Part shown: positions 1,132 to 5,591 of the stretch, piece after piece | Numbering within the stretch: the stretch's first letter is position 1 | Layout of the letters: each line of letters starts with the position of its first letter | From: a virus | Strand: one strand, 5' to 3' | Length of the DNA: 5,591 nucleotides | Virus record (IMG/VR): IMGVR_UViG_3300045988_005188 | Location: 1-5,591 of that record | The notes under the pieces: generated by a model | What the model saw: only the letters and a program-made list of their open reading frames with translations | Told to the model about the DNA's origin: nothing | Database searches by the model: none | Made by a program: the position numbers and the translations under genes

Positions 1132-1335
1132 TTATTCCTTTCCCAGTTCGTAGATCTGTTTCGTGGTGATGTTATCGAGACCGTAGCGCAGCAGTGCCCT
1201 TGTTACTTTCGATCTGGGCAGCTCCAGTGTCTGGCTTACGTCCTCGATTTCTTCCAGCATGTTGTTTTCGATGTTGATCGCATATCTTATTTTCATCATG
1301 CTGGGTTCTTTTTGGTGATACGGTCTTTTGCTCAC
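1132..1335 (-). CDS. Ribbon-helix-helix (CopG/Arc/ParD-like) DNA-binding protein, 67 aa. It has a GTG start overlapping the upstream stop (GTGA).
   Basis: Protein ...MMKIRYAINIENNMLEEIEDVSQTLELPRSKVTRALLRYGLDN... An N-terminal beta-strand with alternating residues (IRYAINIEN) is followed by helix A, then 'LPRSKVTRALL', which matches the RHH helix-B N-cap motif (G/x-S-R-S-x-x-I-R-x-A-L). A strong SD (GAGGGGG) lies 9 nt before the GTG. An alternative ATG start 12 codons later has no SD. Confidence 0.55.
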   Translation of the reverse strand: MSKRPYHQKEPSMMKIRYAINIENNMLEEIEDVSQTLELPRSKVTRALLRYGLDNITTKQIYELGKE

Positions 1336-1481: not shown

Positions 1482-1524
1482 AAAAAAAAAAAAAAACGCA
1501 AGGCTGATTTTCGTCAACCTTACG
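1482..1524 (-). terminator. Rho-independent terminator on the coding strand: an 11-bp stem (2 G.U), a 6-nt loop, then U15
   Basis: Minus-strand RNA reads CGUAAGGUUGA-cgaaaa-UCAGCCUUGCG followed directly by 15 U (the plus-strand A15 at 1482-1496). It sits 16 nt after the stop of the 53-aa ORF. Confidence 0.7.
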
Positions 1525-1701: not shown

Positions 1702-1730
1702 GGTTTAAGCACCATCCTTTCTACATCTTT

Positions 1731-1759
1731 ATTATACACCTCTTTTATACACTTGTCAA
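1731..1759 (-). promoter_or_regulatory. Consensus sigma70 promoter P2 (TTGACA-17 nt-TATAAT) reading toward the 53-aa ORF
   Basis: Minus strand: TTGACAagtgtataaaagaggtgTATAAT. The -35 box is at 1759..1754 and the -10 box at 1736..1731, with an exact 17-nt spacer. It shares an identical 18-nt core (aaaagaggtgtataataa) with P1. Confidence 0.6.
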
Positions 1760-1866: not shown

Positions 1867-2982
1867 TTAGATTTCTTCCCGGATAAGTTTTTTAAATTTA
1901 TCTTGATTTTTTCGATCTTTTACATCATAATATTCTTGCATGGTTAAGCCGGTTTGCTTGAGCTGAGCAAATAGCGCGTCGTTTGCGATTCTTCGGCGTT
2001 CTCTTTTGATTGCTTTCAGTTCTTCAGATTCGGCTTTTACTATTGTGTCTTCTATCGTCTCACTTTCTGCTTCTGATAGCGGTTTGCTGTTTGAATGTTC
2101 CAGATCAAAGAGCTTATCAAAATATCTTGGTGGTTTTGCTCTCCTTCCATTTTTCAGTTGAATTTCATCTTTTGCATAGATTTCATCTTTGTGTTCTTCA
2201 TAGTACTGCATTCCGATCGCAGGATTTTTGCTCATCATGCAGCGTTCTGGTAAAATTCCGAGTTCTTCATAATATTTTTTTGAATCTTTGCCGTAAATCT
2301 TTTTTGTCGTGTATCTTGCGGTGTATGCCATGTTTTTCCATTCTGCTGGTGCTACCACTACATGACCCATACCCCACAGCTTTGTGAGCCATTCAACATT
2401 GTAGTATCTGAAGCCGTTTTTCTGCTTGTAGATTTTCAGTTCTTCCGGTTTTATCGGCAGATCGTACACGATCGCATGATAGTGTGGTCTGTGTGTCTGG
2501 CTTCCATACTCGCCTGCTTGGTAGTACATCAGTTTTCCGGTATTTCTTTCATGGTATTCTAACCAGCGTCTTAGCCGTTTCCAAAATTTCTGCATGTCCT
2601 CATAGTTGAGTGTTAAGTTTTCTATGATGATCTCGCCTGTTTTTTTGTTAACGCCTAAACCTTGATTGTAAGACCATGGTACGTGTTCATTGTCGTATGT
2701 GAGTGTTAAAAACCATGCATTGTCGTGGTATGGAAGTTCCATTTCCATCCTGTTTGCCCAGCTGCTTGCATTTTGCATTTTACAGCCGGCACAGTGTCCA
2801 CATGGCAGGATTTGTGCATTTTCGTCTTTCAGCTTTCGCAGCAGCTTTTTTTCTAGGCTTTCTTCCAAGAATGGTCCTTCAATGTTGAGTTGGCTGTTGT
2901 GCTTCTTTCCTGCCAGCAGATACTTTTTCAGTGTCGTTATTTCGCCGTCTGCGAATCTTACCAAAGGTCTTGTGCACCCCAT
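1867..2982 (-). CDS. VP4: Replication initiation protein VP4 (HUH rolling-circle Rep), 371 aa
   Basis: HUH motif I is FLTLTYD. Motif II is HYHAIVY (HxH). Motif III, MAYTARYTTKK, is the catalytic Tyr motif (YxxxY..K). The N-terminus MGCTRPL (M.C..P) and the Cys cluster PCGHCAGC are typical of gokushovirus VP4. Confidence 0.9.
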   Translation of the reverse strand: MGCTRPLVRFADGEITTLKKYLLAGKKHNSQLNIEGPFLEESLEKKLLRKLKDENAQILPCGHCAGCKMQNASSWANRMEMELPYHDNAWFLTLTYDNEHVPWSYNQGLGVNKKTGEIIIENLTLNYEDMQKFWKRLRRWLEYHERNTGKLMYYQAGEYGSQTHRPHYHAIVYDLPIKPEELKIYKQKNGFRYYNVEWLTKLWGMGHVVVAPAEWKNMAYTARYTTKKIYGKDSKKYYEELGILPERCMMSKNPAIGMQYYEEHKDEIYAKDEIQLKNGRRAKPPRYFDKLFDLEHSNSKPLSEAESETIEDTIVKAESEELKAIKRERRRIANDALFAQLKQTGLTMQEYYDVKDRKNQDKFKKLIREEI

Positions 2983-3016
2983 ATGGATGTTTCACCCCGT
3001 TTACCTCAGTGGGCCC

Positions 3017-3060
3017 CAATAACCCTTCTTGATGTTATTGGGGCCCACTGACACAAAATT
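3017..3060. repeat. Perfect 17-bp inverted repeat (CAGTGGGCCCCAATAAC / GTTATTGGGGCCCACTG) around a 10-nt loop, lying between the RHH-1 stop and the VP4 start
   Basis: Exact reverse-complement arms at 3017-3033 and 3044-3060, with loop ccttcttgat. The arms contain GGGCCC. The loop and arm carry CTTGAT...TTATTG (plus strand) / AATAACATCAAG (coding strand). Confidence 0.8.
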
Positions 3061-3080
3061 TCTTGTTTCCTTCGTTTTCC

Positions 3081-3269
3081 TCATGGATTATTGTTGTCTT
3101 TTCCCATCGTTTCTACATATACCTGTAGTGCGTCCCTGATTATTTCGCTTGCTTGTGCTTTTCTTGGATTCTCTGTTCCTGTCCAGATGTTTTCTGTTGC
3201 CCAGTTTAAATTGTCTAGATCTTTCTGTGTAAGATTTATGTTGATTCTCTTTGCTACTTGGCTTTTCAT
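3081..3269 (-). CDS. Putative ribbon-helix-helix (CopG/Arc-like) regulator, 62 aa, encoded immediately upstream of Rep
   Basis: MKSQVAKRININLTQKDLDNLNWATENIW...ASEIIRDALQVYVE. It has a basic N-terminus followed by an alternating beta-strand (KRININLTQ), then helix A and helix B (SEIIRDAL). The SD AAGGGG lies 8 nt upstream of ATG 3269. The fit to RHH is weaker than for the 1132..1335 protein because of a longer inter-helix loop. Confidence 0.45.
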   Translation of the reverse strand: MKSQVAKRININLTQKDLDNLNWATENIWTGTENPRKAQASEIIRDALQVYVETMGKDNNNP

Positions 3270-3313
3270 GATTATACCCCTTTCTAGGTAAGGTGTGTGA
3301 TTAGTACACCCAT

Positions 3314-3342
3314 ATTATACACCTCTTTTCTGTGTCTGTCAA
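3314..3342 (-). promoter_or_regulatory. Consensus sigma70 promoter P1 (TTGACA-17 nt-TATAAT) driving the RHH-1 / VP4 operon
   Basis: Minus strand: TTGACAgacacagaaaagaggtgTATAAT. The -35 box is at 3342..3337, directly abutting the VP2 stop codon at 3343-3345. The -10 box is at 3319..3314, and the predicted TSS is about 40 nt before the RHH-1 ATG. Confidence 0.6.
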
Positions 3343-4272
3343 CTATCTATTCCTTGCTGTGTGCCCCGGGTTCCATTCAATGTCCCCGTGGCCTTCTCCA
3401 CTGATGCCCTTTTCGTTTCCTCGTGTCGTGCTGCTGCTCTGCTGGCTGCTCTGCTGGTTTAGGTTGCTGATCTGTTGTGCGCTGCTCGACATGATTTGAC
3501 TTGTTGCTTGTTGCATTTGCTCTGCGCTGTACCATTCGTTCGACTGCTTTGCCGTGTTGATCGCGCTCATCGCGTTTTGCAGGAACTGTGCCGTGTTGTT
3601 CCCATAGTCGTACATGCTTTGCATGGTCGCCGTGTGTGCGCTTGGGATGGCTGCGCTCTGAGTGTGTGAAAAGCTTTGCATTCCGCTGCTTGCTGTGCCG
3701 CCTGACGGTGTGCTTGCTCCGTATCCGTTGTATGCTGCTAAGATCGGATTCAAGCCTGCTGCTTTCAGGTCTTTCACGCCGCGCTGGTATGCGGTGCTGC
3801 TCATTCTTTCAGCCCACGCTCGTTGTGCTGCTGCTTCTGCGCTGTTGTACTTCTGTGCGCTGGTCTGGCTTGCGAGGTTCAGACCGTTCGCAACAATGTT
3901 TGATAGCATGTTTAGGCCGTTTGCGTAGCTCCACATACCTGTTTGCAGGTTGTTTGCCGTTGCTGCCTGTCCTGCGTTGAACCCTGCCGCCTGTCCTGCG
4001 TTGTTTCCGGTCGGGCTTCCCATTGCTGTTTGCAGGATTGAACCCAGTGCACTGGTGTTGCCTGTTGTTACGCTTCCACCGCTTGCGCTGGTTGTTCCGC
4101 TGGTTGTTCCGCTGGTGCTTCCGCTGCTCATGCTTGTGTTCATGCCCTGCTGTCCCATGGCGCTGCTGGTGCTTCCGCTTGTGTTGCTGAACAGATTTTT
4201 CATCTGTCCTGCGATCGACAGGCCGCCCGATACGATCGGCAGCCATGTCGTTAATCCTGATAAGAGGCCCAT
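3343..4272 (-). CDS. VP2: DNA pilot / minor capsid protein VP2, 309 aa
   Basis: It contains '[33 protein letters not shown]', which matches the conserved gokushovirus VP2 motif (ERMS.TAYQR.V.D.KAAGLNP.LA). The N-terminal 140 aa are G/S/T/Q-rich low complexity. The SD AAGGGGGTG lies 6 nt upstream of ATG 4272, which is 12 nt after the VP1 stop. Confidence 0.8.
3965..4003. repeat. 15-nt direct repeat gcctgtcctgcgttg x2 (period 24 nt) inside VP2. It encodes the duplicated peptide NAGQAA.
   Basis: Exact copies at 3965-3979 and 3989-4003. Confidence 0.8.
4087..4122. repeat. 12-nt tandem repeat x3 (gctggttgttcc, gctggttgttcc, gctggtgcttcc) inside VP2. It encodes (TSGT)n.
   Basis: Read directly. 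It produces the [17 protein letters not shown] low-complexity tract. Confidence 0.8.
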
Positions 4273-4283
4273 TTTGCACCCCC

Positions 4284-5591
4284 TTAGATCGTGTCAATTC
4301 CAGGTACGCTGTAGATCGGCATCGGTCGCGTCCATGCCTGTTCGTAGTAGAAATTACAGATGAATTGATGGCTGTTGGAACTCTGCACAGCGAGAGTTCT
4401 ATCAATGTTTTCTGTTCCTTCTTTGATCCAGCTGCTGGACAGGGTAGGAAGTGCGTCGTACTTGTCTGCATAGTGCCATGCATCCAGTGTCTGCGCGTAG
4501 GTGCTGCGCATTTCGCTTGTTACCATGTTGGTGCGGTATCTGTAGTCGGCCCATGCTTCTTGATACCCGAAAACTTCTTCGTCCTGCGGCTTGCCCTGTG
4601 CATAGATCTCCTGATTGAGAACTGCTTGTTCACCGAGGTTTGCAAGCATCGGGTCATAATAGCTGAAGCGCGTGTTTCTTGTCCAAAGCCTGCTCAAACC
4701 CTGTTGATAGCTGTGATCTACACGGATAGCTGCCAGACCCAGAACATAACCATGTTCCGTTGCCGAGTACGTGCACATGTTCTGGCTCAAGGTCGTCATA
4801 CTGTAAGCACCAGTGTTGCCCTGCGGCGATGTGCTGTCTGTGCTGCTGGTCTGAATGACCTGATTCACGTTGATCGGCATTCTGTGGCCGCCGATGTACT
4901 CAGATCGGTCAAGACGTGCATCCGGGCTGGTCACACCCCACGCGCCTTTTAGGATTTCTTTGTACCGGGTGCCGGTTCTGGCATCGCGTTCGAAGATATG
5001 CTGCACTGCGATGGCCTGTCGGAGATCGTTGATTGTTGCCGCTGTGACAGTGCTCAGGTCTGCTTGCATTGAGGTGTAGTTTATTTCGCTCGCGTTTGTT
5101 TGCCCACCGAACATTACAAGCGCTTTTCCGCTTTTGTTGTTCTTTTTTGATGCCGCGAGTTTCATGTTTGAGTTTATCGGAATGTTTTCGAGGTTTCCGC
5201 CTCCGTCTTGGAAAATCTCTCCATTTGCCATGGTTTCTGCACTATTTGGCCATACAATTTGTGCGTTTCCTGTCATTGGCAGCTGTACTGGTTCTGTAGA
5301 TTTCTGCGGAGACGGCAGGCAGCTTGTGAAGTAGTCTTTGTATTTGCAGACCTTCAAAGGCAAACCGCCTGCTTCTGCGTCTGACAGGTTTGTGCCGGTG
5401 TTTACGCCGGTTGTGGTCGTGTCGTTCATGCTCTGTGTGACAGGCTGCTGCAAATTTTCGTCTCGGAACCATTCGTTCCAAACTTTTGCATACGCCCGGA
5501 ACGGCAGGCTGTTCACCTTCAGGCCGCTCACGCCTGTCGGGATTCCGAAGTAATCCGCCAGCGTTCCCACGTTCCATCCTCCTGCTGGTGC
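4284..5591 (-). CDS. VP1: Major capsid protein VP1, C-terminal part (continuous with 1..397 across the circular junction). 5537..5591 duplicates 1..55.
   Basis: ...[40 protein letters not shown]... carries the 'LPFRAY....NEWFRD.NL' signature of Microviridae VP1. The GTG at 5570 listed as the start in the ORF track is internal, because the frame stays open upstream through the junction. The stop is TAA at 4284-4286. Confidence 0.9.

Follow-up and report, generated by a model that had tools for sequence, protein, structure and literature searches.

The double-strand origin (dso) of rolling-circle replication has a standard layout: the nick site lies in a hairpin loop, a binding site adjoins it, and both are upstream of the rep gene (PMC5703833, PMC5714925). 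In the hairpin-type dsos of rolling-circle plasmids such as pT181 and pMV158, the nick falls in the loop of a palindrome, which is also where it is predicted in the locus described here. The nick core of the pC194/pUB110-type rolling-circle plasmids reads CTTGATA. Plasmid dsos differ from this locus in their Rep families (Rep_1, Rep_trans, Rep_2), in loop positions and binding repeats, and in serving genomes that are unencapsidated. The stem-loop origins of CRESS-DNA viruses are similar to the present locus in that a variable stem carries an invariant loop with the HUH nick site. These viruses are distinguished by eukaryotic hosts, ambisense genomes, superfamily-3 helicase Reps and a nonanucleotide resembling TAGTATT↓AC (arrows mark cuts throughout). 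Circovirus and Cyclovirus reportedly differ in where the origin lies with respect to the coding regions (PMC5656780). The two genera thereby provide a precedent for related ssDNA viruses that differ in the strand packaged relative to their genes.

The phage phiX174 belongs to the same virus family as the genome analysed here, and the initiators of both (protein A and VP4, respectively) combine an HUH motif with a YxxxY motif. The phiX174 record annotates a rep_origin for viral-strand synthesis at 4306 in CAACTTG↓ATA, within CAACTTGATATTAATAACACTATAGACCAC. The 30-nt site of the gene A protein reads CAACTTG↓ATATTAATAACACTATAGACCAC. Gene A itself contains this origin, which forms no hairpin and is found on the coding (virion) strand. 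Hairpins are known from other small Microviridae. Reekeekee- and roodoodooviruses carry intergenic hairpins upstream of Rep, with an identical loop and compensatory changes in the stem; the authors left the function open and mentioned a possible primosome site (PMC9865509). These viruses, likened here by description, belong to other microvirus clades, and neither an orientation flip nor a link with composition was reported for them. Some gokushoviruses also have a XerCD dif-like integration site (PMC7062461).

The window, the whole stretch of 5591 nucleotides under analysis, is a gokushovirus. Its first 55 and last 55 bases are identical, so that it represents a circular genome of 5536 nt. All recognizable genes are on the minus strand, and the further small ORFs present are on that strand too. 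The main features are given below.

397, across the junction, to 4284, minus strand: VP1, major capsid protein (Pfam Phage_F, 4e-126).
4272 to 3343, minus strand: VP2, pilot protein.
3314 to 3342, minus strand: sigma-70 promoter TTGACA-17-TATAAT, a perfect consensus (12/12 matches).
3081 to 3269, minus strand: ORF62, a ribbon-helix-helix-like (RHH-like) ORF of 62 aa directly upstream of the hairpin and VP4; part of the context of the hairpin, which does not require it.
1867 to 2982, minus strand: VP4, rolling-circle replication initiator (Pfam PF23343, 2e-15; PHROG 942, 3e-100).
1128 to 868, minus strand: VP5.
881 to 381, minus strand: VP3, scaffold.

The VP4 translation contains the HUH motif HYHAIV and the two-tyrosine motif YTARY, and VP4 is the presumed enzyme acting on the hairpin. 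ORF62 has no match in Pfam or PHROG. Its family consensus reads KR(I/F)N(I/V)NLT...SDIIRDAI. A single-sequence AlphaFold2 model of moderate confidence (pLDDT 71.5) predicts an extended N-terminus and two helices, and the only match to CopG in a profile search of the PDB is weak (E = 0.55). Transcription from the promoter, running from 3342 to 3314, would cover ORF62, the hairpin and VP4. A 38-nt paralogous copy of the ORF62 promoter region is present at 1722–1759 (family D8). A tRNA search of the window found none. Its GenBank relatives, obtained from the faeces of humans, pigs and lemurs, share approximately 71–75% nucleotide identity with the window, and the window's clade is frequent among human-gut metagenome assemblies.

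The hairpin is located between the stop of ORF62 (3081) and the ATG of VP4 (2982), both minus-strand genes. It consists of the following parts.

3006 to 3023, no strand assigned: 5′ arm of the hairpin, plus-strand sequence TCAGTGGGCCCCAATAAC, 18/18 complementary to 3034–3051.
3024 to 3033, plus strand: hairpin loop of 10 nt, CCTTCTTGAT on the plus strand and ATCAAGAAGG on the coding minus strand.
3028 to 3033, plus (non-coding) strand: predicted Rep nick core CTTG↓AT, with the putative cut at G3031/A3032.
3034 to 3051, no strand assigned: 3′ arm of the hairpin, plus-strand sequence GTTATTGGGGCCCACTGA, pairing with 3006–3023.
3049 to 3054, plus strand: TGACAC box, a candidate Rep-binding box 17 nt past CTTG that overlaps the stem base and the 3′ flank.

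The original prediction, made from the sequence of the window, described a perfect 17-bp palindrome at 3017–3060. The palindrome is real and longer than was claimed, with 18 of 18 positions paired instead of 17, but those coordinates are about 10 nt too high; the two 17-mers quoted do exist, at 3007–3023 and 3034–3050. The view that such a repeat is very unlikely by chance agrees with the shuffled controls. The longest perfect inverted repeat with a loop of 3–20 nt has arms of 18 nt in the window and of 6–10 nt in 40 dinucleotide shuffles of the circle. The stability expected of the hairpin in ssDNA is likewise found (−22.5 kcal/mol, z = −7.0, with 0 of 200 shuffles equally good). The corresponding RNA fold has about −35 to −42 kcal/mol (z = −5.1). 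No other strong hairpin was found in the window. The element had been judged not to be a canonical terminator, and rightly: a T-tract after the G+C-rich stem is absent on either strand, and the interval 2700–3500 holds 0 terminator-like sites. The coding-strand sequence immediately after the stem is GGTAAACGGGG.

Around the nick core the plus strand reads CCTTCTTGATGTTATTGGGGCCCACTGACACAA, and the cut is placed between G3031 and A3032 by analogy with phiX174. The CTTGAT of the loop is on the plus strand, opposite to every gene, and CTTGAT occurs nowhere on the coding strand of the window. The hairpin had originally been pictured in the ssDNA virion strand. The location of the nick motif on the non-coding strand was missed, and for this reason ‘virion strand’ cannot simply mean coding strand. 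A cumulative GC skew, proposed at the same time as a check, has no switch at the hairpin; the measure is uninformative for a rolling-circle genome of 5.5 kb.

Several other identities were considered for the locus and rejected. The loop does not contain the CRESS-DNA motif (T/A)A(G/T)TATT↓AC, which limits that likeness to architecture alone. A dif-like site has an 11-6-11 arrangement over 28 bp; the hairpin is arranged 18-10-18 and bears no likeness to the dif consensus. The flank TTTTGTGTCA does not fit a dif/XerCD site, a sigma-70 promoter or a Bacteroidetes promoter in spacing and consensus. An Rfam search (E ≤ 1) gave a chance miRNA-like match on the palindrome, with 23 bits against a threshold of 67.5 bits.

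Conservation was followed outwards from close relatives. The exact 17-mer arm is present in 13 other microvirus contigs of IMG/VR. A match in a 242-kb viral contig (L013) sits in a collagen-like tandem repeat and was discarded as chance. All 53 of 53 loci with VP4 relatives (99–51% identity) have the hairpin, 0–30 nt upstream of VP4. The sequence of the stem varies and its pairing is retained (CACCTAGCCCC..., CAGTAAGCCCCTATAAG and CACTGGGGGGAAATGT are examples). Elements with CTTG on the non-coding strand, as in the window, are termed class A, and those with CTTG on the coding strand class B. Covariation was assessed in an alignment of 28 distinct, diverse class-A sequences (VP4 identity 99–51%). 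Both sides have changed in 14 of the 19 stem pairs, and 95.8% of cells are paired. With the partners slid by one to three columns, pairing falls to 30–49%; the observed value was not attained in any of 500 shuffles. To judge from this alignment, the hairpin structure is under selection. Where stem pairs are mismatched, the CTTG strand mostly shows G.T and the coding strand A.C (approximately 7 versus 2, a trend only). Two stretches are invariant in the 28 relatives, namely TCAAGA in the loop core and TTGTGTCA in the 5′ flank, both given on the coding strand. Conservation of an asymmetric centre and of one flank, with the arms free to vary, is the signature of a hairpin loop read by a protein and not that of a dyad operator. 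The comparison with relatives that had been suggested as a further check thus yields a conserved hairpin and a conserved loop, and the covarying stem with its invariant loop supports the candidacy of the element as an origin or Rep nick hairpin. When 185,579 reference genomes were screened for a host or for integrated copies (prophages), 13 pattern matches came up; none of them has the stem, and all are therefore ascribed to chance.

The partial resemblance to the phiX174 origin noticed at the outset extends to the core of the nick site. A weight matrix was built exclusively from gokushovirus elements, using 12 positions from −4 to +7 around CTTG. With this loop-core matrix the true nick site of phiX174 ranks first among 10,772 positions on both strands. 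The core and box matrices together place it second. A wider core matrix (−6 to +8) plus box leaves the phiX174 origin outside the top five, and the box matrix gives a negative score (−4 to −6) in the phiX174 ‘key’ region, for which reason homology of the TGACAC box to the ‘key’ sequence (ACTATAGACCAC) was rejected. Since the wide core and box matrices fail on phiX174, similarity is claimed for the nick core only. There the CTTGAT of the phiX174 site is identical to that of the window. Both phiX174 and the gokushovirus elements have a second conserved block approximately 17–18 nt downstream of the cut (GACCAC versus TGACAC). The differences are also clear. The two bases before CTTG are AA in phiX174 and TT or TA in the gokushovirus elements, and the spacer is AT-rich in phiX174, whereas in the window it is a G+C-rich stem arm. 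The window's site is intergenic and belongs to the non-coding strand, within a loop closed by an 18-bp stem. The location of the phiX174 origin within gene A, and its lack of a hairpin, count against reading the window's hairpin as an origin. A coding-strand location as in phiX174 was found for the 48 class-B genomes described below and for Chp2, but not for the window and the 105 other class-A genomes.

A scan for the flank-plus-loop pattern over microvirus contigs from other environments recovered the same architecture with unrelated stems, and there the genes are all on the other strand. The sample was made independent of the element by a VP1 profile search, which added 74 new contigs. The general gokushovirus element has a stem of 9–20 bp, a loop ending in (T)ACTTGAT or CTCTTGAT, and then (G)TGACACC, all on the coding strand. 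The cultured Chlamydia phage Chp2 has such an element at 2904–2941, between VP3 and ORF8 and with CTTG on the coding strand, which reads CTAGCGTATAACAG-tctacttgat-CTGTTATACGCTAG-gtgata. A variant element at 3296–3335 of phiMH2K has the usual orientation and scored below the threshold for classification. Among 179 genomes with VP1, 106 are class A (the window included) and 48 class B; the 25 without a clear element are mostly incomplete contigs. There is one copy per genome, and no genome has both orientations together. CTTG never varies among 87 unique elements drawn from the two classes, and each of the next two bases, A and T, is 92% conserved; the loop core can be written CTTG(A/T)T. TGA(C/T)A stands 16–18 nt past CTTG in 83 of 83 unique elements, in both orientations and with stems of 9–20 bp. 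Most genomes of both classes have the element upstream of VP4, abutting it in class A and at a median distance of 155 nt in class B; class-B elements lie 150–600 nt from VP4 or upstream of VP1. Homologues of ORF62 occur in 88 of the 106 class-A genomes and in 0 of the 48 of class B. Of the features of a hairpin-type dso, the element has a predicted nick motif in the loop of a covarying stem, a single copy, a position upstream of rep in most genomes, and a neighbouring box at a fixed distance.

The gut clade of the window carries the entire module of box, stem and loop inverted in place relative to the genes. In a bootstrapped neighbour-joining tree of VP1, six gut groups form one superclade (100%). 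The four class-A groups come out as monophyletic in 54% of the bootstrap replicates, and alternatives reach 17–21%. The inversion may have been a single evolutionary event.

Orientation is associated with strand composition, which was measured at the four-fold degenerate third positions of VP1. In class A, 45 of 45 unique hairpins are in genomes whose coding strand has more A than T (skew +0.18 to +0.76). In class B, T exceeds A on the coding strand for 32 of 38. The association with AT composition has a Fisher value of 3e-17, which is uncorrected for phylogeny and, as the inversion possibly occurred once, is not a count of independent events. At its four-fold sites the coding strand of the window has A.34–.53, G.23–.29, C.18–.21 and T.05–.16, so that the order on the plus strand is T>>C>G>A. 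The phiX174 virion strand has T.64, C.19–.22, G.07–.12 and A.05–.07, and the coding strand of sister class-B clades, which also belong to the gut superclade, has T.53, C.26, G.14 and A.07. The coding-strand composition of the window is thus the mirror image of both. Over the whole window, T makes up 36% and A 16% of the plus strand. An excess of T at synonymous sites is a reported signature of the encapsidated strand in ssDNA phages and has been attributed to cytosine deamination (PMC3278643). As the genes themselves are the frame of reference, the direction of transcription cannot explain a mirrored composition; a flipped asymmetry of replication can. The link between orientation and composition thereby connects the element with replication. 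Rolling-circle replication displaces and packages the strand that has been nicked, which would make the antisense strand the one packaged in the window's clade. On the coding strand of phiMH2K and of seven class-B genomes (six distinct hairpins), A equals or exceeds T (skew +0.05 to +0.42), and the existence of A-rich genomes with the usual orientation means that A-richness is no proof of antisense packaging. The spectrum of singleton mutations in 12 genomes of the subclade, which are merely 75–95% identical, has equal rates of C>T (0.085 per site) and G>A (0.082 per site), and its transversion asymmetries only restate the composition.

Taken together, the hairpin is probably a viral-strand replication origin, the gokushovirus equivalent of that of phiX174. 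The further proposal that the window's clade packages the strand antisense to all its genes stands at about an even chance. The following mechanism is envisaged. (i) In the supercoiled replicative form, the 18-bp arms would extrude as a cruciform and expose the loop as single-stranded DNA. (ii) VP4, a two-tyrosine HUH enzyme, would recognize both the loop core CTTG↓AT and, 17 nt further downstream, the TGACAC box. (iii) Nicking after CTTG, at 3031/3032 of the plus strand, would leave VP4 bound to the 5′ end. (iv) The 3′-OH would prime synthesis, and the nicked strand would be displaced. (v) One round later, VP4 would cut and reseal the regenerated site, yielding a single-stranded circle for packaging. 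(vi) With the module inverted in the window's clade, the strand nicked, displaced and packaged would be the plus strand, antisense to every gene. For this account as a whole, in which an inverted origin hairpin is nicked by VP4 and the plus strand is packaged, the prospects of being right and of being wrong are evenly balanced.

Hairpins also serve as complementary-strand origins (sso/ssi), of which the n′ site of phiX174, G4 and the plasmid ssoA are examples. Such a hairpin in the packaged ssDNA would recruit primase, primosome or RNA polymerase and start the conversion to the replicative form. That this is what the element does is unlikely. In its favour, single-strand origins are likewise built as stable ssDNA hairpins whose loop is conserved, and the dependence on orientation and the link with strand composition fit equally well. 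The window has no other strong hairpin, and one element could serve both roles. Comparable hairpins upstream of Rep in other small microviruses have been tentatively discussed in this sense (PMC9865509). Against it, the invariant core is the nick hexamer of phiX174, and the matrix picks the viral-strand and not the complementary-strand origin of that phage. A site for a host factor is unlikely to be identical across very different hosts, which here extend from that of Chlamydia phage Chp2 to those represented in gut, aquatic and soil metagenomes. The element has no match to Rfam or to a known sso-type motif. Motifs specific to such origins include RSB and CS-6 (TAGCGT) in ssoA, a CTG start for primase beside a hairpin, and a hairpin recognized by PriA. 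TAGCGT is absent; a CTG does occur in the window's box (CACTGAC), where most class-B elements have GTG. A role of this kind would likewise imply a flipped packaged strand in the window's clade.

Also improbable, and to the same degree, is an origin of conventional polarity. VP4 would then nick the coding strand, either in the ATCAAGA of the loop or at another site, or the cruciform would work both ways, and the coding strand would be packaged. The A-rich coding strand would, on the same low probability, have another cause, for example host codon usage. The Microviridae are positive-sense by textbook account, which antisense packaging would contradict. Several genomes with the usual orientation, as well as phiMH2K, are also A-rich on the coding strand, and if the flip was one event its correlation with composition could be coincidence. 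The inversion, however, takes in the entire module including its asymmetric box, so that the same protein–DNA geometry is kept on the other strand, and it is the nicked strand that rolling-circle replication displaces. The AT and the GC components of composition are both mirrored at four-fold sites. The coding strand of the window is devoid of CTTGAT, and the G.T bias of the stem mismatches (about 7 against 2) favours the CTTG strand.

The element might instead act as RNA in the ORF62–VP4 transcript, as an attenuator or terminator, a site of RNase processing or stability, or a translational regulator of VP4. The perfect promoter at 3342 to 3314 would read through the hairpin and the RNA fold is stable, as described above. 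In class A the hairpin abuts the ribosome-binding site of VP4, the Shine-Dalgarno sequence beginning right after the stem. Such a function is nonetheless very unlikely. Neither the missing U-tract nor the count of 0 terminator-like sites suits it, and Rfam offers no match above noise. Class-B genomes transcribe the complementary loop and flank, with the element 150–600 nt away from VP4 or ahead of VP1, and no RNA reader could recognize both versions. The natural mismatches of the stem are, moreover, mostly A.C on the mRNA-sense strand. A secondary, clade-specific effect of the hairpin on the expression of VP4 could still accompany its main function.

A dyad operator of the RHH-like ORF62 protein, the other role given to the palindrome in the original prediction, is hardly credible: ORF62 does look RHH-like and ends 48–106 nt from the hairpin centre throughout the window's clade, but the hairpin is present in 48 class-B and approximately 18 class-A genomes that have no ORF62 homologue, the arms, which would be the half-sites, vary freely in the ORF62-bearing clade around an invariant, non-palindromic centre, and the GTGTA direct repeats in the paralogous promoters (3305–3342 and 1722–1759) are a more conventional operator candidate.

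The reading as a viral-strand origin nicked by VP4 concerns an element that has received little notice. A search of the full-text literature found no description of a gokushovirus replication origin or of this hairpin element, the older papers on Chp2, SpV4 and phiMH2K aside. The element goes unmentioned in the two principal comparative papers on gokushoviruses and microviruses, and the region is unannotated in 11 of the 11 GenBank records that carry it. Origin hairpins of HUH Reps are known as a kind. The gokushovirus version, its bipartite signature, and above all its inversion accompanied by a mirrored composition appear to be new. Packaging of the strand opposite to the genes is not known to have been reported for this virus family.

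No ssDNA phages are more widespread in gut and ocean viromes than the Gokushovirinae. A family-wide origin signature recognizable from sequence would give thousands of metagenomic genomes a natural zero coordinate and would be a basis for the design of minimal replicons and of VP4 nicking assays. It would also offer an explanation for the strong differences in strand composition between clades. If the proposed antisense packaging is true, the Microviridae hold both positive- and negative-sense members, and the assumption that all are positive-sense would be overturned. The clade concerned would be a large one, comprising gokushoviruses of human and animal guts. The orientation of an element of approximately 50 nt, the CTTG-loop hairpin with its TGACAC box, would then predict virion polarity from sequence, with consequences for strand-specific quantification of viromes and for studies of mutation spectra. 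The polarity of ssDNA phages would be able to flip, as it does between circoviruses and cycloviruses.

The core of the hairpin loop, CTTGAT in the window, is not uniform among the compared sequences. CTTGTC or CTTGTT takes its place in L190-L194, L262 and L214, and the coding-strand variant loops read AGACAAGGA in an A-rich clade and GCTCCTTGTT in a T-rich clade. Strict invariance across loop cores is limited to CTTG, which is consistent with a cut directly 3' of this tetranucleotide. Elements outside the window that bear on the loop are as follows.

L191, 3393-3433: variant-core element.
L214, 4524-4575: variant-core element.
phiMH2K (L186), 3296-3335, coding strand: 11-bp hairpin in the VP5/J-like intergenic region, its loop containing CTACTTGTTG.

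phiMH2K departs from the composition rule, under which CTTG on the coding strand mostly accompanies an excess of T over A at four-fold sites: its loop is on the coding strand, yet this strand is rich in A, with.46 A and.27 T at four-fold sites. SpV4 (L187) yielded weak candidates only (CTAAACTTGATAAGCAAGGTTTAG, upstream of VP1), at 1637-1660 and approximately 526. The exact 17-mer of the hairpin arm also occurs at approximately 1119-1135 of L013, a 242-kb viral contig. The sequence around it in this large phage contig is a tandem repeat of the collagen-like Gly-X-Y type; the 17-mer was rejected as a relative of the hairpin and is a chance occurrence.

The first and last 55 nt of the window are identical (1-55 = 5537-5591), and the record is therefore a circular assembly of 5536 nt. 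VP1 crosses the circle junction and is cut to 428 aa in ORF lists of the linear window. A run of 15 A at approximately 1482-1496 (+), T15 on the coding strand, is long relative to a 5.5-kb genome and could be a slippage-prone site or a weak point of the assembly. It lies directly upstream of the ORF for a 39-aa basic DNA-binding protein (MAYRK...GGIRL). An imperfect 12-nt repeat, TCCGCTGGTTGT, runs in tandem through 4084-4185 (+) in the VP2 gene, so that the pilot protein has a low-complexity stretch rich in Ser, Thr and Gly close to its N-terminal part.

Two promoter copies and two small ribbon-helix-helix (RHH)-like ORFs are found in the window.

3314-3342, minus strand: sigma-70 consensus promoter, perfect TTGACA-17-TATAAT, immediately past the VP2 stop.
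1722-1759, minus strand: paralogous promoter copy, 38 nt, 76% identical, past the VP4 stop.
3081-3269, minus strand: ORF62, RHH-like, family consensus KRxNxNLT...SDIIRDAI.
1132-1335, minus strand: second RHH-like ORF, 55-67 aa, weak RHH_3 match (E = 0.028).

Because the promoter is canonical sigma-70, it argues against Bacteroidetes as host. The ORF62 family is restricted to the window's clade, and ORF62 itself has no Pfam or PHROG matches; the second ORF also weakly matches PHROG 5118/4738, 'transcriptional repressor'. To our knowledge, the classical gokushovirus gene set is without RHH-like regulators. Both promoter copies carry GTGTA direct repeats spaced by about one helical turn, and these are a plausible candidate operator for the RHH-like small proteins.
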